Shown here: piece by piece, positions 7,761-44,787 of the stretch
How positions within the stretch are numbered: the first letter of the stretch is position 1
How the letters are laid out: every line of letters begins with the position of its first letter
Source: a virus
Taxonomy: Duplodnaviria; Heunggongvirae; Uroviricota; Caudoviricetes
DNA length: 48,235 bases
Reading direction: 5' to 3' (one strand)
Virus record (IMG/VR): IMGVR_UViG_3300028805_000076
Span: 72,165-120,399 of that record
Program-made: the position numbers and the translations under genes
The notes under the pieces: model-generated
Database searches by the model: none
What the model was told of the DNA's origin: nothing
Seen by the model: only the letters and a program-made list of their open reading frames with translations

Positions 7761-8225
7761 CTAATTCAATTCATCTAAATCTATTAATTGTTTTGGCTCG
7801 ACCCTTAAGCACCATAAGCCATATATGATTGTTATAATACTAATGCAAAGAAACAAAAATGCAATGTCAAACCACCATAAAGCTGCGAAGAATACATTTA
7901 ATTGAAAAACAGAATCATTCCTTAAGCAACGTTTAAAAAATATTTTTTTTTGATAATCATGTCCTAATTTATAATGTAAATAATCAGATTTATTTGTGCG
8001 AATTGTTACTTTTGACAAAAATTTGACAGTATCATTTGGAATGACAGTAAAGCAATATATTGTATCTGAATCAACTACATCAATATGCTTTTCAGCTATT
8101 TTTCCTTGAACCGATTTGTCGATTGTTGAATTACATATAATTCTGCCAAACAAAGATACTATCGATATGACAACAAATAGTATTCCAACAATAAAATATA
8201 AAACACCAAAATCGTTTTTTTCCAT
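7761..8225 (-). CDS. Membrane protein with two predicted TM segments
   Basis: Hydrophobic stretches VLYFIVGILFVVISIVSLFG and AALWWFDIAFLFLCISIITIIYGLW. ATG at 8225. Confidence 0.7.
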   Translation of the reverse strand: MEKNDFGVLYFIVGILFVVISIVSLFGRIICNSTIDKSVQGKIAEKHIDVVDSDTIYCFTVIPNDTVKFLSKVTIRTNKSDYLHYKLGHDYQKKIFFKRCLRNDSVFQLNVFFAALWWFDIAFLFLCISIITIIYGLWCLRVEPKQLIDLDELN

Positions 8226-8973: not shown

Positions 8974-9117
8974 AAGTTATCTGTTTTTTTACATAACTAT
9001 ATTAAAATAGTATACTATTACTTAATATAAATATACTATTTATAAGAAAAAAACATATAGAATTTATTGAAAAGCCATTAAGAAATAAAGGCAAATAATT
9101 AAATATCACTTACTTTT

Positions 9118-10422
9118 TTATTGTTTTAAAATATCTATTATATCATTTACATTATGAAAACATTTATCACCTAAAAAAGTGTCTTGTTTTTCTTTTGTGA
9201 AATATAAAAGTTGAATATTGTTGTCTTTACAAAATTGTTGTTTTATAATATCATTTTTATGTTGCGAATCAAATCCTTGTTTACCGCCCAAACCATTGAT
9301 AATTTCAAAATGGAATTTTCCTTGACATTCTATTGCAATATTTTTTTGAGGAATAAAAAAATCAAGTTTTAAAGGTAGAACATTTTTTAAACCATTTATA
9401 ACATGCTGAGTTTTATATTCAATTTTATTTTCTTCTAGCGTTAATCTCATTTCTCGTTCTAATTTACTTTCTGAACATGTGGGACATCCGCAACCATTTA
9501 AATGAAGATAATATGATTGATTAAAATTCCCGTGGATAGGACACTTTATATTAATTTTATAATTGCTATTATAAATTGTGCTTTCGATATTATTAACATC
9601 ATAAATATATTTATTGCCGTGAATTTTATTAAATCTTTCAATTAATTCGTTTGTTGTTGGCTTAACTTTTTTATTACATTTTGGGCAACCATTTCCACAT
9701 TGTATTTTTGATGGTGCTGCCATCCATTTATAACCACAAATTAAGCACTTAAACATAATTTTTTCACCCATTGATTTATAATCGTCAATAATTTCTAAAT
9801 GTCTATTTTTAAGATTTGAATCTACTATAAATTCATTCACTTTTTTTTTATGTTTTTCACGAGCACAAAATGGACAACCCTTTTGCAATACTATGTGTTC
9901 ATGAGGTGTTTTTGTAAAAATTCCGTGTTCTTTACAAATAATTTGAATTTTATCATTTGGTGAAGAGTCTTTAACTAAACTATAATCATATAAATCACCA
10001 AATATTTTAACTGCTTCTGAAATTATCATATTTTTTGTTCTAAAATTATCAGAACATTTTGGACAACCTTGCTTTTGATTAATGTGCGAATAGGCAATTT
10101 TTTCAAAATCGCCATGTTTTTTACAAGTAATTATTACTTTATCTGTAGAATTATTACATATACTTTTATCATATGTAAAATTATCACCAAAAATTTCTTT
10201 AGACCATTTTATAAAATTTTTGGTTGTAAATTTTTTATTTTTAGTCCTAATTTTACCATTATAAACATCTTGCGGTAACGCTTCAATATATTCATTTGTA
10301 TATGTATCAAATAAAATAACTTTAGTTCGATTGTTTATGTATATTGTTTTATCGAAAGTAAATCTATCACCATATTTTTCAACACAACGTTTTTCAAATG
10401 TTTCTTGCGTGGTTTTTCTCAT
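9118..10422 (-). CDS. Free-standing putative homing endonuclease (Zn-ribbon-like repeats plus Vsr/DUF559-like nuclease)
   Basis: Four Cys-rich repeats (C..HG.F...H...GCP.C type) and C-terminal LKLDFFIPQKNIAIECQGKFH...DIIKQQFC; same repeat type as 3921-5213. Confidence 0.75.
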   Translation of the reverse strand: MRKTTQETFEKRCVEKYGDRFTFDKTIYINNRTKVILFDTYTNEYIEALPQDVYNGKIRTKNKKFTTKNFIKWSKEIFGDNFTYDKSICNNSTDKVIITCKKHGDFEKIAYSHINQKQGCPKCSDNFRTKNMIISEAVKIFGDLYDYSLVKDSSPNDKIQIICKEHGIFTKTPHEHIVLQKGCPFCAREKHKKKVNEFIVDSNLKNRHLEIIDDYKSMGEKIMFKCLICGYKWMAAPSKIQCGNGCPKCNKKVKPTTNELIERFNKIHGNKYIYDVNNIESTIYNSNYKINIKCPIHGNFNQSYYLHLNGCGCPTCSESKLEREMRLTLEENKIEYKTQHVINGLKNVLPLKLDFFIPQKNIAIECQGKFHFEIINGLGGKQGFDSQHKNDIIKQQFCKDNNIQLLYFTKEKQDTFLGDKCFHNVNDIIDILKQ

Positions 10423-10493
10423 AGAATATCTATTTATATATAAATATATTATTTATAATAATAACAGAATTTTATATAAAAAATAATTACAAA

Positions 10494-20675: not shown

Positions 20676-21881
20676 TTAATAACTAATATCATCCAAATTT
20701 ACATCACCAAACATATCTGATTGATTTATATTGAATTTCTTTGGAAGTTCAACAAATGGGAATACTGTGTTCAAATATTTTTCAATTCTAATATTCAAGT
20801 CATCTGTCATTGAAGTAGCTTTTGCAATGTCAGCCTTTAATTGACCGTTCTCATATGTATCAAGTGGTTTAACATATTTCAAGAACAAATCCTTGTAAAA
20901 TGGCAGATAATTGTTTCTATCAGCAAATGTACTGAATGGCTGGCTGAATATGTTTGAATTCAATATACCTTTAGTGCTCAAATCTGCCAATGGAGCTTGG
21001 TTTCCGTTTGGCTTAAGCATTTGTTTCACCAAATTTACATTGTTGGAAAACTTATTGGTAAGGTTTGGGCAAATAAAGAACCATTTTACAGTCGCTCTGT
21101 TTGACATTATTTTGAACATAACGTGGAATAAGTCTGGTTCATCATCATCAGTACTCTTGCCTGGAAAATCACAAATGAACACTTGTAATGGGACAGCCTT
21201 TCTCTTTTTACCTTCCCTCGTCACGCCCCCTTTTTTTTTCATCAGATTATCACACAGATAGTTTATTTCTTTTGGAATTACTCTGTCACCCCCAATTGAG
21301 TTGTCATCCCAATTTCTGCAAGCAAGGTTTGGCTCGCTCACAAGTCTGCTTTTCAAATACTTTTGATAAGCTGTCTGATTGTAATTCCATCTATCAATAT
21401 CCTTATTCTCGTATAGTGAAAGATTACCATTTTTGCTAATCTTGTTATAATACCAATCCTTGATGCATTGCTTAAGGAAATTGTCTCTGTTTTTGTGCGT
21501 GACTTTCTTTTCAATTTTCTTTGTTGCGTCTTTCAAAGCTTGATTGAATATGTCATTTACATCGTCTTGCATTTCTTCGGATTCATCATCATCTTCATCA
21601 TCGTCTGCTGGTAAAATATCCTTGAAATGGTCTTGAAGTACATAAAACAAATCAGTATCATCCAAATATTTCTTTGGCTGCTTGAAAGAATCAACCCAAA
21701 TAACTATGTCGTGTAATTTTGGGAACCCATCATCACCAATGGTTGAATTGCTTGCCCTTAAAAAATTTGAGTCAAGGAAATCCTTGACCAATGAAACCTT
21801 ATCACTAAGTCCATTTACCTCTTCTCGGACAAGTTTTTCAACAAGTCTTTTATTTGCTTTTTCGGTTATAATAATTTTCAT
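20676..21881 (-). CDS. Hypothetical protein, probable internal head protein
   Basis: N-terminus MKIIITEKANKRLVEKLVREE; TATTTATA at 21911-21904. Confidence 0.65.
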   Translation of the reverse strand: MKIIITEKANKRLVEKLVREEVNGLSDKVSLVKDFLDSNFLRASNSTIGDDGFPKLHDIVIWVDSFKQPKKYLDDTDLFYVLQDHFKDILPADDDEDDDESEEMQDDVNDIFNQALKDATKKIEKKVTHKNRDNFLKQCIKDWYYNKISKNGNLSLYENKDIDRWNYNQTAYQKYLKSRLVSEPNLACRNWDDNSIGGDRVIPKEINYLCDNLMKKKGGVTREGKKRKAVPLQVFICDFPGKSTDDDEPDLFHVMFKIMSNRATVKWFFICPNLTNKFSNNVNLVKQMLKPNGNQAPLADLSTKGILNSNIFSQPFSTFADRNNYLPFYKDLFLKYVKPLDTYENGQLKADIAKATSMTDDLNIRIEKYLNTVFPFVELPKKFNINQSDMFGDVNLDDISY

Positions 21882-27254: not shown

Positions 27255-27268
27255 AATTTTAATAATGA

Positions 27269-27306
27269 AAAAATACCGATTTATTGTTGAATCGGTATTT
27301 TTTTTG
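27269..27306 (+). terminator. Intrinsic terminator
   Basis: 13-bp inverted repeat aaaaataccgatt / aatcggtattttt plus T-tract. Confidence 0.85.
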
Positions 27307-27382: not shown

Positions 27383-27571
27383 ATGTTAGATAGGTATCCT
27401 ACTTTAGAACAAAAGGGATTCATTTCTGACGAAGTGAATCACAAGATTGCTTATATAAGCAAGAACGTTAGAGGTAAAGAGAGATTTTCACCTCTAGAAT
27501 CTTTTTTTGAAGAAGACAACAAGAGTCAAGTGACAATTGATGTCGCATGCTGTAGATTACACAGACATTAA
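27383..27571 (+). CDS. Hypothetical protein (62 aa); may be a degraded gene
   Basis: ATG after an AT-rich leader; the 3' end overlaps the frame of the next gene and contains a T7 run. Confidence 0.4.
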   Translation: MLDRYPTLEQKGFISDEVNHKIAYISKNVRGKERFSPLESFFEEDNKSQVTIDVACCRLHRH

Positions 27572-27608: not shown

Positions 27609-29348
27609 ATGAATAAAAATTTAGATGAACTCAAGAGAATTAAAGAGTTGATGAACTATGGGTTAACTGAAAACAAGAAGCAGTACAGCAGTGTTGAGCA
27701 TAGCAAGGAAGCAGCAGACGGTAAGGTCTACGGAATTGTTAGAGAAGGTACTAAGTACTACATAAAGGTCTCAAAGGATAAGAAGAACCTTATCAAGGAG
27801 AACTTTGATTACATTGGCGGCTTCATGAATCGTAAGAGATATGAATACAACAGTTTCGCTAACGCTTTGAAGCAGTTTGACCTAAAGATGATGTCTATAA
27901 GGGAAGCAAAGGCAAACGGCAAGGACATAATCATCGAGTCTTGGAATCCAGAAAAGAAAGAATTTCTTGCTTTGGAATCAACAAACAAGATGCGTCAAGA
28001 AATTATGCGTCAACGTCAGATAATGGAAAATGCAAAGCTTATCAGCGAAGGTAAGTGCTGCACCAACCAACCATACTGTGATGATGTAAAAGATGTTGAG
28101 GATTGCGAAGGTGTTAAACAGCAAGGCAAGGACAACATTAGCGGAAAAGTTAAACCAAAGAAGGGAAAGGCTATTAAGGAAACAGCCGACAGATTGGCTT
28201 GGCATCATACTGGTCAGAATGCACAAGGTACTATTGCTGACACCTATATGGATAAGAGCCACGGCACAGAAATCGGAGATGGTAAACCATTCAATAAAGC
28301 CAAGAATTCTGAAGAAGAAATGGAAAATGGCGTTGTAGAGGAACACAACACTTCTATGGCCTATGCATCAGACAATCAAAATAACCCAGAACCAGGAACT
28401 GGTCCTATTGGAAAGGATGACCCATTCGACAAGAAGGGTGCAACACAAATCAAGGAGGATATTGATGATTTGGATGATTCATCTGTAATTGATGATGAAG
28501 ATTACGGTGGAGGCTTTAACGATGACGGTAATTTTGGTGATGATGGTTCAACATATGACGCTGAATACGATGACCAATCTATGGAAGGTGATGAGTTGGG
28601 TGATGACAGTATGATGGAAGTCGATGATGACGAACCATACGAAGATGATTCAACAGAATATGAACTTGAAACCGATGGAGGCGCTGATGATTTGGATACA
28701 TATGATGATTTGAATTCAGATGCTGATTTAGGTGGAGAAGGCGGTGACGTTGAGTCAAGATTGTCTTCGATTGAATCAACACTTAACACGATATTGGATA
28801 AGTTGGATAACATTGACAGTTCTGAATTCGAAGATGATGACTTGTATCCAGAAGATGGAGAAGATGATGACCTTGGAGGCGATGATTTCGATGATGATTC
28901 TGATGAAGATGATGACCTTGGAGGTGATGATTTCGGTGATGGAGAAGGTGATGACCTTGGAGGTGATGATTTCGGTAACGGAGAAGGTGATGACCTTGGA
29001 GGCGATGATTTCAGTAATGGAGAAGGTGATGACCTTGGAGGTGATGATTCTGATGAAGATGATGATAGTGTAGTTTACGAATCAAGGTCATACAGAAAGA
29101 TGAGACTCGCTGAAGAAAACAGACTTGATGATTTCGGAAAGCATCCAGCTTATAGAAAAGAACCAATGAAACGTCCAGAAACTGGTGTTGATAAGAACTC
29201 TCACGGTAGGGATTGGAATCACAGCAGTGTTCACAGTGAAGAACCTTATGGTCAAAAAATTGGTGATGGTTCTCCATTCAGCGTAAACCCAGAAGAAATC
29301 GAAAATGCTATTGTTGAAAGTGTTATGAAGCTATTAAAAAAAAAGTAA
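27609..29348 (+). CDS. Acidic, largely disordered protein (579 aa), candidate prohead core/scaffold or internal head protein
   Basis: ATG27609 MNKNLDELKRIKELMNYG after acaaaca; very D/E/G-rich; multiple (I/L/V)xE motifs; ends LLKKK at an A9 run. Confidence 0.7.
   Translation: MNKNLDELKRIKELMNYGLTENKKQYSSVEHSKEAADGKVYGIVREGTKYYIKVSKDKKNLIKENFDYIGGFMNRKRYEYNSFANALKQFDLKMMSIREAKANGKDIIIESWNPEKKEFLALESTNKMRQEIMRQRQIMENAKLISEGKCCTNQPYCDDVKDVEDCEGVKQQGKDNISGKVKPKKGKAIKETADRLAWHHTGQNAQGTIADTYMDKSHGTEIGDGKPFNKAKNSEEEMENGVVEEHNTSMAYASDNQNNPEPGTGPIGKDDPFDKKGATQIKEDIDDLDDSSVIDDEDYGGGFNDDGNFGDDGSTYDAEYDDQSMEGDELGDDSMMEVDDDEPYEDDSTEYELETDGGADDLDTYDDLNSDADLGGEGGDVESRLSSIESTLNTILDKLDNIDSSEFEDDDLYPEDGEDDDLGGDDFDDDSDEDDDLGGDDFGDGEGDDLGGDDFGNGEGDDLGGDDFSNGEGDDLGGDDSDEDDDSVVYESRSYRKMRLAEENRLDDFGKHPAYRKEPMKRPETGVDKNSHGRDWNHSSVHSEEPYGQKIGDGSPFSVNPEEIENAIVESVMKLLKKK
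28866..29066 (+). repeat. Five-copy coding tandem repeat (DDLGGDDF...), 39-45 nt period
   Basis: gatgaccttggagg(c/t)gatgatt starts at 28866, 28911, 28950, 28989 and 29028. Confidence 0.9.
29339..29345 (+). other. Putative -1 programmed ribosomal frameshift heptamer A AAA AAG
   Basis: The heptamer is in the correct phase directly before TAA 29346-29348. The -1 frame is open from 29318 to 29923. Confidence 0.7.
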
Positions 29349-29923
29349 TATCTGAAAAGCACGTTTTAAAAGTACCTAATAAGGGTGGTGATGACGATAT
29401 GTCTTTGGATGATAATATGCCAGAACCACAAAATGATGAACCAATGGGCGGTGACGATTTTGGTAACGAACCTCCAATGGGTGGCGAAGAGCCAATGGGT
29501 AGTGAACCAGATATGAATGATGATTTCGGAGATGGTGATGATTTTGGAGGTGGCGAAGAAGGTGATGAATCTACAGAACATTTAATTAGTATGTATAAGT
29601 CTTTAACACCACAAGACAAAGTTGCTGCCGAACGTTACATACAATCATTGACTGCCGATGACGGTGGTGATGAAAAATCTGAAGAACCATTTGATGATGA
29701 GCCAATGGGTGGGGAAGAACCACCAATGATGGACGATGATGGCGGCTTTGGCGATGAAGGTAGTAACGAACCTCCAATGGGAGGAAACCCAATGAGGGAA
29801 TCATTTGTTAGGGAAATTGTAAACAATCCAACAATGACAAAGAGGCAAGGACGAAGAGATTACAGAAAGGTTGGTGATGATGTACCAAAAAAAGGAAACC
29901 CTTTTGTATCAAATCGTAGATAA
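29345..29923 (+). CDS. Acidic Gly/Pro/Met-rich ORF, probably the frameshifted C-terminal extension of 27609-29348 (independent ATG possible at 29399)
   Basis: The -1 frame reads VISEKHVLKVPNKGGDDD-MSLDD...; EPPMGG repeats; C-terminal MRESFVREIVN. Confidence 0.7.
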   Translation, partial: VISEKHVLKVPNKGGDDDMSLDDNMPEPQNDEPMGGDDFGNEPPMGGEEPMGSEPDMNDDFGDGDDFGGGEEGDESTEHLISMYKSLTPQDKVAAERYIQSLTADDGGDEKSEEPFDDEPMGGEEPPMMDDDGGFGDEGSNEPPMGGNPMRESFVREIVNNPTMTKRQGRRDYRKVGDDVPKKGNPFVSNRR

Positions 29924-29929
29924 TACAAT

Positions 29930-29965
29930 AAAATACAGAAAGCGATTGTTTTCTGTATTTTTTTT
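29930..29965 (+). terminator. Intrinsic terminator
   Basis: aaaatacagaaa / tttctgtatttt 12-bp stem plus T-tract. Confidence 0.8.
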
Positions 29966-38915: not shown

Positions 38916-38927
38916 TATTTATAAATA
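38916..38927. promoter_or_regulatory. Palindromic double TATTTATA box, candidate divergent late promoter
   Basis: TATTTATAAATA reads TATTTATA on both strands, between the divergent portal (38877) and glycosyltransferase (38949) starts. Confidence 0.55.
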
Positions 38928-41955: not shown

Positions 41956-44787
41956 ATGGTATATATTAGAAAATTTGGCACCACAGCAGAATTTATTGCT
42001 GAAAAAGATAATTTGGCAAGACCTAACATATCATTTGTAGAAGAAGTTAATGATATTTATGCGTTGAAAATGCCTATTTGTAAGTTAAAGTTGAATGATA
42101 ATTCAGTTGTTGAACTTTTTGGTAATGGGCAATTAACACAATCAATGATACAGCCATATAAAGATACTGTTGTTTCGGCTGCAACAACAAATTTATGCAA
42201 TAGTATTGGTGGTTATGCTTTCCAAGGATGCGCAAACTTAAAGGATGTAACAATACCATATGGAAGTACAAGTTTGAGTAACGCTTATGCTGCCTTTTCT
42301 GGATGTAGTTCGTTAAGTAGCGTAACACTACCTCAATCTTCTTCCACTAATGGTATACCACCATATATGTTTTGTGACTGTTCATCATTAACTAGTATTG
42401 CATTACCTTTGGGTGTAACTCAAATTAATAATTGTGCATTTCAAAACTGTAGTGGTTTAACAAGTGTTGTTTTACCACAAAGTTTACAAACAATTGTTTA
42501 TTCTGCATTCACATCTTGTGTTAATTTACAAAGCATCGATATTCCTCTTGGAGTAACAGCAATTGTTGATTATGCCTTTTATAATTGTACATCATTAACA
42601 AGTCTAACATTGCCAAATAGTGTAGCATATGTTGGAAGTTATGCCTTTTATAATTGTAGCGGTTTAACAGAAATCACAATTGGAAATGGAGTTAGACAAA
42701 CAGGTAATTTATCGTTCGGAGGTTGTAGTGCAGTTACTAGTTTAACTGTTGGAACTGGAATGAAAACAGCATTTAATATTCAAGTTTTTCCTAACTTAAC
42801 AACATTGAATTATAACTCTGCAAGTTTACCATTTTTACGAAATAGTAAAGTAAACACGTTAACATTAGGAGGTAATGTAACAAGTATTGGTAATACAGCA
42901 TTCAGTGGATGTTCGGCATTAACAAATGTAACCCTACTAGATAGTGTTACAAGTATTGGTGCAAGTGCATTTACTTATTGTAGTGGTTTAACAATCATAA
43001 ATTTAGGTAGTGGTGTTACAAGTATTGGAAATTATGCATTTTATTATTGCCGTGGGTTGACAAGCATAGAAATACCAGATAATGTTACAAGTATTGGTGA
43101 TTATGCTTTCTATAGTTGTAGTGGTTTAACAAGTTTAGATTTAGGCAATGGTGTTACAAGTATTGGTAGGGAGGCTTTCGATAGTTGTAAATCATTAACA
43201 AGTATAACCATACCAGATAGTGTTACAACTATTGGTGATAGAGCTTTCTATAGTTGTAGTGGATTAACAAATGTATCTGTTGGTAGTGGAGCTACAAGTA
43301 TTGGTAGTTATTCATTTTATTATTGTAGCTGTGTTGAACATTTGTTTTATAATGCAAAAAATGTTCCATCTAACTTATGGTATTTTAACAACAATTTAAA
43401 AACAATAACATTCGGAGATAATGTTGAAAACATTGGCGATAGAGCTTTCCATAGTTATAGCTCTTATCAAAGCGTATTATCAAGCGTAACTTTTGGAAAT
43501 GGGCTAAAAACAATTGGAGACGATTCTTTTGGTATGTGTCCAAAATTAGTAACTATTACAATACCAAGTGGAGTAACAAGTATTGGTGCTAGTGCATTTA
43601 CTTCTTGCAGTGGTTTAACAAGCATAGAAATACAAGATAGTGTTACAAGTATTGGTAATTGTGCGTTCTCTGGTTGTACTTCATTAACAAGTTTAGATTT
43701 AGGAAATGGTGCTACAAGTATTGGTTATACTGCATTTGAAAATTGTAGTGGATTAACAAGCGTTACAATACCTAACAGTGTTACAAGTATTGGTAGTGGT
43801 GCTTTTCATAATTGTTATGGATTAACAAGTATTACAATTCCAAATAGTGTTACAAGTATTGGTGATGGTGCTTTCAATACTTGTACATCATTAACAAGTG
43901 TAACAATAGGAAATAGTGTTACAAGTATTGGTAGGGATGCTTTCGTTAGTTGTAAATCATTAACAAGTATAACCATACCAGATAGTGTTACAAGTATTGG
44001 GGGTTATGCTTTTGGATATTGTAGTGGTTTAACAAGCATAGAAATACCAGATAGTGTTACAACTATTGATTATATGGCATTTGCAAATTGCTATTCATTG
44101 TCAAGTGTAACTATTGGAAGTGGAGTTAATAGTATTGGTAATTATATTTTCGCGCAGTGTAGCGGTTTAACAAATATTGTTGTTAGCATAAATAATGCAA
44201 AATATGATTCAAGAAATAATTGCAATGCAATAATAGAAACAGCAACAAATACTCTGTTATTTGGTTGTAATAATACTAACATACCAAATAATGTTACAAG
44301 CATTGGGGGTTATGCTTTCAGTGGTTTTACATTATTGTCAAGTATAGCAATCCCTGATAGTGTTACAAGTATTGGTGATTATGCTTTCTATAGTTGTAGT
44401 GGATTAACAAGTATAGATTTAGGCAATGGTCTTACAAGTATTGGTGCAAGTGCATTTACTTCTTGTAGTGGTTTAACAAGCATAGAAATACCTGATAATG
44501 TTACAAGTATTGGTAATTCTGCTTTCGAGAATTGTACAAGTTTGATTAGCATATCTTTTGGAAATGGTTTAACTAATCTAGGTTATGGGGTTTTAAGACG
44601 TTGTAGTAATTTGGCAAGTATTACATCATTAGCAACAACTGCACCAACAATATCAATGACCACATTTGTAGGCATTGTACAAAATGGTACATTATATGTT
44701 CCAAGTGGAAGTAGTGGATACGATAATTGGATGCAGAATGCAAACTATTATTTAGGAAAATATAATTGGACTAAGGTAGAGCAATAA
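41956..44787 (+). CDS. BspA-type leucine-rich repeat (LRR_5) protein, probable adhesin or receptor-binding protein
   Basis: About 30 repeats of roughly 23 aa with consensus CSGLTSITIPDSVTSIGxxAFxx. Confidence 0.93.
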   Translation: MVYIRKFGTTAEFIAEKDNLARPNISFVEEVNDIYALKMPICKLKLNDNSVVELFGNGQLTQSMIQPYKDTVVSAATTNLCNSIGGYAFQGCANLKDVTIPYGSTSLSNAYAAFSGCSSLSSVTLPQSSSTNGIPPYMFCDCSSLTSIALPLGVTQINNCAFQNCSGLTSVVLPQSLQTIVYSAFTSCVNLQSIDIPLGVTAIVDYAFYNCTSLTSLTLPNSVAYVGSYAFYNCSGLTEITIGNGVRQTGNLSFGGCSAVTSLTVGTGMKTAFNIQVFPNLTTLNYNSASLPFLRNSKVNTLTLGGNVTSIGNTAFSGCSALTNVTLLDSVTSIGASAFTYCSGLTIINLGSGVTSIGNYAFYYCRGLTSIEIPDNVTSIGDYAFYSCSGLTSLDLGNGVTSIGREAFDSCKSLTSITIPDSVTTIGDRAFYSCSGLTNVSVGSGATSIGSYSFYYCSCVEHLFYNAKNVPSNLWYFNNNLKTITFGDNVENIGDRAFHSYSSYQSVLSSVTFGNGLKTIGDDSFGMCPKLVTITIPSGVTSIGASAFTSCSGLTSIEIQDSVTSIGNCAFSGCTSLTSLDLGNGATSIGYTAFENCSGLTSVTIPNSVTSIGSGAFHNCYGLTSITIPNSVTSIGDGAFNTCTSLTSVTIGNSVTSIGRDAFVSCKSLTSITIPDSVTSIGGYAFGYCSGLTSIEIPDSVTTIDYMAFANCYSLSSVTIGSGVNSIGNYIFAQCSGLTNIVVSINNAKYDSRNNCNAIIETATNTLLFGCNNTNIPNNVTSIGGYAFSGFTLLSSIAIPDSVTSIGDYAFYSCSGLTSIDLGNGLTSIGASAFTSCSGLTSIEIPDNVTSIGNSAFENCTSLISISFGNGLTNLGYGVLRRCSNLASITSLATTAPTISMTTFVGIVQNGTLYVPSGSSGYDNWMQNANYYLGKYNWTKVEQ
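42880..44540 (+). repeat. Degenerate ~69-bp coding tandem repeats with near-identical internal duplications
   Basis: Recurrent gtgttacaagtattggt. Near-identical blocks at ~43151-43229 vs ~43917-43990 and ~43083-43150 vs ~44361-44430. Confidence 0.85.

Follow-up and report, generated by a model that had tools for sequence, protein, structure and literature searches.

The stretch of DNA considered here, hereafter the window, comprises 48,235 nucleotides of a virus of the Caudoviricetes (positions 72,165 to 120,399 of IMG/VR record IMGVR_UViG_3300028805_000076). The record, a fragment of 120 kb, represents a sheep-gut jumbo phage and is almost the same in sequence as an IMG/VR contig of 387.5 kb. 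The subject is a pair of adjoining open reading frames (ORFs) on the + strand that meet, in different frames, at a run of nine A's (A9), and which very probably constitute one gene with programmed recoding. Terminator-like hairpins lie on both sides of the pair, and no + strand terminator was found between 27304 and 29930. The elements of the locus are as follows.

27267-27304, + strand: terminator-like hairpin, with a 17-pair stem and then a T run, which closes the preceding unit and is the 5' boundary of the transcription unit.
27609-29348, + strand: ORF of the short isoform in the zero frame, beginning with ATG 27609 and comprising 579 codons (579 amino acids, aa) plus TAA; it encodes a three-part protein.
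29336-29344, + strand: A9 homopolymer, a candidate RNA-polymerase slippage site.
29339-29345, + strand: slippery heptamer A AAA AAG, in X XXY YYZ phase relative to the zero frame.
29345-29923, + strand: -1 frame extension, 192 open codons plus TAA (29921-29923).
29346-29348, + strand: zero-frame stop TAA, immediately 3' of the heptamer; in relatives, the zero-frame stop is 0-6 codons 3' of the slippery run.
29399-29401, + strand: first ATG in the extension frame, probably no independent start, having a GC-rich leader and a conserved junction peptide upstream.
29930-29961, + strand: intrinsic-terminator-like hairpin and T run, directly 3' of the extension stop, the 3' boundary of the unit.

Around the joint the zero frame reads GTT ATG AAG CTA TTA AAA AAA AAG TAA TAT CTG, and the alignment of homologues of the upstream ORF begins at the Met of ATG 27609. 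The -1 frame, entered at 29345, begins VISEKHVLKVPNKGGDDD and then M, and reads VISEKHVLKVPNKGGDDDM..., its first ATG being codon 19; an A tract of ten would join the two frames directly, and the +1 frame is shut after 2 codons. The predicted long product has 771 aa. An earlier note on this DNA had described an ORF end of CTA TTA AAA AAA AAG TAA with A AAA AAG in phase inside A9, a -1 frame extension of about 192 aa, and a first ATG 18 codons into the -1 frame, and coordinates and phase agree with it on each point. The A9 run by itself is within chance for this AT-rich window (32% GC), in which there are 18 A9 matches versus 12.8 expected. Since the run alone is unremarkable, the case for recoding rests primarily on conservation across the family, and further on where the run is located, on its phase and on the open -1 frame.

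The run is present in five independent DNA assemblies or runs, i.e. the window, two IMG/VR assemblies from samples other than the window's (L001 and L002) and two Logan contigs from two DNA runs on two samples (X1, depth 9.5; X3, depth 14.5). This recurrence excludes a homopolymer error of assembly, the weakness that the earlier note had foreseen for its own proposal.

Conservation of the joint among relatives was assessed in an unbiased family sample from two IMG/VR scans in which only the upstream ORF served as query, and which gave 115 loci with 70 distinct junction sequences. At all 70 junctions the upstream ORF stops 0-6 codons past a slippery sequence and an ORF of 150-240 codons then follows out of frame, with 56 junctions needing a -1 shift, 14 a +1 shift and none being in frame. 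None of the 197 homologues with the C-terminal module of the upstream protein runs on into the extension; in the ten longest representatives (681-795 aa), which are unfused and still end ...KKK(x), the extra length is located in the middle region. Orthologues that lack the slippery site, or that are in-frame fusions, had been named beforehand as the outcome at odds with recoding; in the unbiased sample the sites are kept and no such outcome appeared.

A tree of the conserved domains, from which the junction columns were left out, requires a minimum of 24 changes in composite junction state, 18 in run length and 7 in shift direction, and at least 4 of the changes in direction are forced by well-supported branches; L038, the sister lineage of the window (support 98), needs +1. 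That none of these many rearrangements has an in-frame outcome argues for selection against the fused state, for which (2/3)^24, or ~6e-5, may serve as a rough figure. The Lys run at the junction is encoded by pure A in 66/70 cases, despite Lys codons elsewhere in these genes being AAA in only 45% of cases, which points to selection at the nucleotide level. Runs of A9-A11 are present at 63/70 junctions, where a heptamer would need A6-A7 only, and every one of the 14 junctions needing +1 has exactly A10.

The extension itself contains a conserved junction peptide (VISEKHVLKVPNK), an acidic, disordered region rich in Pro, Met and Gly, a helix pair (LTPQDKVAAERYIQS) and the tail MRESFVREI...KGNPFVSNRR. 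The extension ORFs of 20 lineages align over their full length, with conserved blocks comprising [ILV][STN]E..(KVLKVP or ERPTKLEIPN) right after the joint, LSxEDKxAVxKYAKS, MPMES...IxE and a terminal ...NPFxSP. In every lineage the junction block lies upstream of the first start codon, and one of them (L032) lacks any ATG, GTG or TTG along 105 of the 217 extension codons. Within the segment that precedes the ATG, 723 of the 1107 pairwise differences in the best-sampled clade are at third codon positions, with 541 synonymous versus 353 non-synonymous differences. By these sequence comparisons the extension is, to all appearances, a real and selected coding region, one that would need recoding to be reached. 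A model of the extension, made with the stand-alone protein of the relative L118 (see below) and an alignment, is mostly disordered with four helices (predicted local distance difference test score, pLDDT, 59.5) and was too poor for a fold search; overall, the extension forms an acidic, largely disordered tail that includes a conserved helix pair and has a basic C terminus, NPF-x-S.

It is thus very probable that the two ORFs are one gene with programmed recoding, giving isoforms of 579 and 771 aa, and the short and long isoforms envisaged in the earlier note are well supported by the family-wide conservation of the joint. That the long isoform is made, in what proportion, and by which mechanism, we infer from the site, its phase, the open frame and its conservation, together with the selection against the in-frame state and the coding-type evolution of the junction. 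Most ribosomes would translate 27609-29345 and stop at the TAA at 29346, so giving the short isoform, and a set fraction of product would continue in the -1 frame to 29920, so giving the long isoform (...LLKKK-VISEKHVLKVPNK...), with ...SVMKLLKKKVISE... as the joint peptide. By analogy with other two-isoform genes of phages, the long isoform is likely to be a minor form, limited in stoichiometry, beside a short form made in bulk. Two routes to it can be envisaged, i.e. tandem -1 slippage of Lys-tRNAs on A AAA AAG and slippage of RNA polymerase with addition of one A to the A9 tract; both would be expected to contribute and to yield the identical protein, the peptide across the joint being LLKKK-VISEK in either case. 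Stop-codon readthrough and an alternative genetic code were considered and rejected, given that the zero-frame stop is TAA and that the extension is read in a different frame.

With respect to the ribosomal route, the -1 junctions with runs shorter than nine are informative in that all 14 distinct examples have a canonical in-phase heptamer. These include A7 heptamers (A AAA AAA, in GGA AAA AAA T and TTA AAA AAA G), an A6 heptamer (A AAA AAC, in NNA AAA AAC; L120-L122), A AAT TTY heptamers (TTA AAT TTY in L027-L031 and AAA AAT TTT in L039), G GGT TTT (in TTG GGT TTT; L116, L117 and L123) and G GGA AAA (in TTG GGA AAA; L119). Such short-run junctions are unable to act as transcriptional slippage sites, and the A AAA AAG of the window is of the same type. 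With respect to the transcriptional route, a run of at least 9 nt, or about the length of the RNA-DNA hybrid (A9 in the window), and both shift directions among orthologues, as expected for transcriptional slippage, are found here; bacterial RNA polymerase slips efficiently in vivo on runs of 9 A or T, the Thermus dnaX gene being an example (Atkins et al., PMC5009743). In a metatranscriptome (X4) the assembly breaks at the run, giving one contig with A10 (29042-29363, depth 4.04) and another with A9 (29315-29502, depth 3.6), and only A9 is present in the DNA runs X1 and X3 and the RNA run X5, the comparison being one of contigs rather than reads, at depth ~4, with RNA samples that differ from those of the DNA runs and with no DNA run matched to X4. 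A10 is precisely the transcript that places both frames in frame, and its presence in X4 is a suggestive but weak sign of polymerase slippage. Parts of the gene that are uncovered in X4 and X5 say nothing on expression, because these are contigs and not reads.

The dominant route is tentatively placed with the ribosome, at somewhat less than an even chance; transcriptional slippage is a serious, if also tentative, candidate for that role, and some other process, such as ribosome sliding, is unlikely to hold it. The -1 frameshift put forward in the earlier note is therefore sustained as regards a recoding site with an in-phase heptamer, but not as the exclusive mechanism, given that 14 of the 70 junctions need +1, the excess of A9-A11 runs and the A10 RNA contig. 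On the same grounds transcriptional slippage on A9, which that note had offered as an alternative, would seem to be at least a co-mechanism.

Several observations weigh against programmed recoding as described above, or against parts of it. The 14 +1 junctions are unreachable by -1 frameshifting, so that a single mechanism fails for the whole family; in the +1 lineages one A must be lost, two A's must be gained, or the ribosome must shift by +1/-2. As had been remarked before, there is no downstream stimulatory hairpin: the 120 nt 3' of the site contain no stimulatory RNA structure, their fold being no better than that of shuffles (z = 0.10), and the consensus fold of 25 relatives has 0 pairs and thus no conserved stimulatory structure. 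No upstream stimulatory element resembling a Shine-Dalgarno (SD) sequence was seen near the site either, and the close zero-frame stop is the only conserved context feature at the joint. Three further sense-strand A9 runs are located mid-ORF, which would be costly if A9 slipped very efficiently. The A10 RNA contig is one low-depth contig, set beside an RNA run with A9 only, and may be a DNA strain variant or an artefact of reverse transcription or of the polymerase chain reaction; the strain-level variation in tract length within the family weakens it as evidence of slippage. Finally, the extension has a gene of its own in L118, which means that covalent linkage is not an absolute requirement. 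The additional A9 runs in the window are all on the - strand (7943-7951, 9841-9849 and 21231-21239), in ORFs of 157, 434 and 401 aa, respectively; both alternative frames are shut within 0-7 codons at these runs, and efficient slippage would give truncated products.

Among the alternatives to programmed recoding, the one that survives best is that the choice of isoform is set at the DNA level, with the A tract acting as a replication-slippage hot spot and the genomes being a mixture of A9 (split) and A10 (fused) forms, a heterogeneity akin to phase variation in place of recoding at the level of expression. A targeted search among 5.8 billion proteins for longer proteins with the extension profile did reveal two fused, in-frame forms. 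One of these (P0270, 774 aa) is present on seven contigs and has A11 (L126 and L127), while L128, which is 99.1% identical to L126, has A10, is split and ends GAA AAA AAA AAG TAA like the window; the other (P0271, in L129) is the A10 version of an A9-type joint and is in frame. The strain-level polymorphism of the tract can be located at L126:1934-1944 (A11, fused) and L128:2490-2499 (A10, split). The tract thus varies at the DNA level between strains, with fused alleles being viable but rare. A DNA-level choice would also fit with the repeated changes in run length on the tree and with the A10 contig of X4 being from a sample with no matched DNA run. However, the five independent DNA assemblies or runs of this phage all have A9, and in-frame genomes are very rare, there being none at the 70 unbiased junctions, none among the 197 proteins and two clusters in the 5.8 billion proteins. 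Moreover, the split layout is also retained in lineages that lack a homopolymer (G GGT TTT, G GGA AAA and A AAT TTY), in which phase variation is impossible. A choice of isoform made at the DNA level is, on balance, very unlikely.

It may be, although this is speculative and rather doubtful, that variation of the tract and programmed recoding act together, the A tract serving as a heritable tuning knob. Replication slippage would then shift the joint between -1, +1 and, rarely, in-frame states, each of which would be read by polymerase and ribosome slippage as a different ratio of short to long isoform. If so, DNA-level contingency and two expression-level recoding mechanisms would be combined at one site, with the direction of the shift being freely exchangeable.

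A second alternative is that the ORFs are two independent genes, the downstream one being translated from ATG 29399 (174 aa) or by termination-reinitiation, with the A run being incidental. Gene callers annotate the ORFs as separate in all relatives, and an SD-like GGTGGTGA is positioned 7-14 nt 5' of ATG 29399. However, no other gene in the window uses an SD, all 33 other gene starts having an AT-rich leader without one, and GGTGGTGA is simply the Gly-Gly-Asp codons of a GGDD-rich protein; the leader of ATG 29399 is GC-rich for this reason, unlike the 33 other starts. The GC-rich context, together with the conserved peptide upstream, makes independent initiation at ATG 29399 unlikely. The evolution of the junction peptide in the manner of coding sequence, upstream of the first start in every lineage, likewise argues against separate genes, as do the 105 codons without a start in L032 and the retention of slippery sites at the nucleotide level against codon preference. 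The AT-rich, SD-less starts resemble those of Bacteroidota and their phages, which fits with the presence in the window of a BspA-type leucine-rich repeat protein (41956-44787); the hosts appear to do without SD pairing.

The two-gene alternative is realised in L118, the upstream protein of which is 63% identical to that of the window over the N-terminal 300 residues. In L118 the first ORF ends GNRKNLR*, and after it (L118:3090-3870) come a terminator-like hairpin with a T run, an AT-rich spacer of 130 nt and then the extension, as a stand-alone gene of 191 aa that has its own start. However, the L118 stand-alone protein has ~23 additional N-terminal residues and aligns to the window extension from the first residue of the latter (E = 2e-14). 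For the window, two independent genes are highly improbable. To judge from L118, the extension can probably work without covalent linkage; the uncoupled arrangement thus marks the extension as a functional module, the coupled layout elsewhere being maintained rather than forced. On visual comparison, the N-terminal ~23 residues of the L118 stand-alone gene look like the C-terminal helix of the upstream ORF; a BLAST comparison of the first 40 residues of the stand-alone protein with that helix gave no alignment, so the idea of a duplicated helix is by eye only.

That the locus is a decaying gene, in which a once-fused ORF was broken by a frameshift mutation to leave a non-functional remnant 3' of the break, is scarcely credible, for although in-frame forms exist, the extension is open and under purifying selection in >70 divergent lineages and the break is always at a slippery sequence.

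The (I/V)xE motif that the earlier note had observed at the junction is conserved, as [ILV][STN]E with the Glu in at least 90% of lineages, but its meaning is confounded at the nucleotide level. Its codons, NTA ANN GAR (29345-29356 in the window, and at the junctions of relatives), contain TAA, and frequently TGA, in the two unused frames, and a nucleotide-level constraint of this kind would be an equally good explanation of the motif. The phage encodes a T4-like portal, a large terminase and a T4-type prohead protease; a 386-aa ORF at G000:C1:64813-65724, ~7 kb upstream of the window, matches Peptidase_S77 (PF03420), the gp21-like/T4 prohead protease family (E = 1.4e-11). A T4-type prohead core would be expected to go with such a protease and with (L/I)xE cleavage motifs at its processing sites, for which the [ILV][STN]E after the joint is an ambiguous candidate in view of its codons. 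Cleavage after the junction Glu by a gp21-type protease is possible, and a prohead core identity for the upstream protein is a guess that has no support from PHROGs, Pfam, PDB or fold searches.

The gene lies between thyA and terL. Homologues of the upstream ORF are numerous (772 in one search; 765 representatives at 50% identity in another) and all unannotated, with many being on viral contigs of 200-410 kb. The upstream protein has a conserved N-terminal alpha/beta domain (residues ~1-150; model pLDDT 82), and a variable, acidic and disordered middle region; its C-terminal module (FGKHPAYRKxPM...DWNxxSV...PFG..IG..PF...AIVESVMKLLKKK), which closes with a helix and the Lys run, is again conserved. 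Neither ORF had a match in PHROGs and Pfam scans, which also covered the neighbouring ORFs, and a Pfam scan of 90 N-terminal domains, member by member, gave scattered noise only. A WGR-like identity, raised by weak VIA matches (Z ~4), was not supported by that 90-member scan and was rejected; the best VIA Z-score, 5.6, is at noise level. A profile search of the PDB gave no match and Foldseek nothing at E <= 0.001, blastn and tblastn searches of a phage database likewise gave no match, and so no cultured relative, the BFVD search returned uncharacterised relatives only, and the ESM Atlas only unnamed viral clusters, at 0.80.

Recoding of this kind is well known, including from dnaX, the gpG/gpGT proteins of tailed phages and insertion sequence (IS) elements; what is new here is an unusually diverse member in an uncharacterised protein family. 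The tau and gamma products of dnaX arise in Escherichia coli by -1 ribosomal frameshifting at A AAA AAG, and in Thermus thermophilus by transcriptional slippage at a 9-nt homopolymer (PMC5009743). The joint described here has the heptamer of the former and the run length of the latter, and in both systems two isoforms share a common N terminus, orthologues reach the same outcome by differing slippage mechanisms, and stops are near in the unused frames (PMC5009743). By contrast, the shifted product is shorter in E. coli and Thermus dnaX and longer here, the upstream SD and downstream hairpin of E. coli dnaX have no counterpart found at this joint, and the proteins are unrelated.

In the gpG/gpGT system of lambda and other tailed phages the shift is a conserved -1, rarely -2 or +1, and, as here, the layout is kept across divergent phages while the slippery sequence varies (PMC5009743). 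The two differ in protein family, in size and character (579 + 192 aa, acidic and disordered, here) and in genomic position, gpG/gpGT being between the tail tube and tape measure genes rather than between thyA and terL. They differ too in that A9-A11 runs predominate here and the shift direction flips often. The orfA-orfB pairs of IS elements cover the same range of heptamers, long A/T runs and both directions, with IS3-type elements using -1 at A AAA AAG and others transcriptional realignment, through which several reach the +1 frame (PMC5009743); here, however, there is no mobile element or transposase, and no stimulatory pseudoknot or hairpin was found. A fixed fraction of product with a C-terminal extension is likewise obtained from Shigella spa13 and Citrobacter tssM, through transcriptional slippage at a homopolymer located within the ORF or at its end (PMC5009743). 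Those are bacterial secretion-system genes, and in the present case an in-phase ribosomal heptamer coincides with the run.

Because gene callers split the gene into two hypothetical proteins in each of several hundred animal-gut jumbo-phage genomes, the long isoform is absent from all of the annotations. The family provides a natural experiment in which one joint is served by at least 6 in-phase -1 heptamers, A9-A11 runs, A10 +1 runs, rare in-frame alleles and one uncoupled two-gene version, so giving a testable case of ribosomal and transcriptional slippage replacing each other. In addition, the family points to the 192-aa tail as being a functional module of an abundant, uncharacterised phage protein.

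The T4 late-promoter box TATAAATA occurs 20 times in the window versus 7.7 expected, with 0/100 shuffles reaching 20, and several of the sites lie between ORFs, e.g. at 9026-9044, 10431-10457 and 38916-38927. The box is absent from the + strand within 300 nt upstream of the gene, and no promoter is therefore assigned to it. A small ORF of 62 aa (27383-27571) is located between the upstream terminator and the gene, and L118 has a 61-aa gene at the same place.

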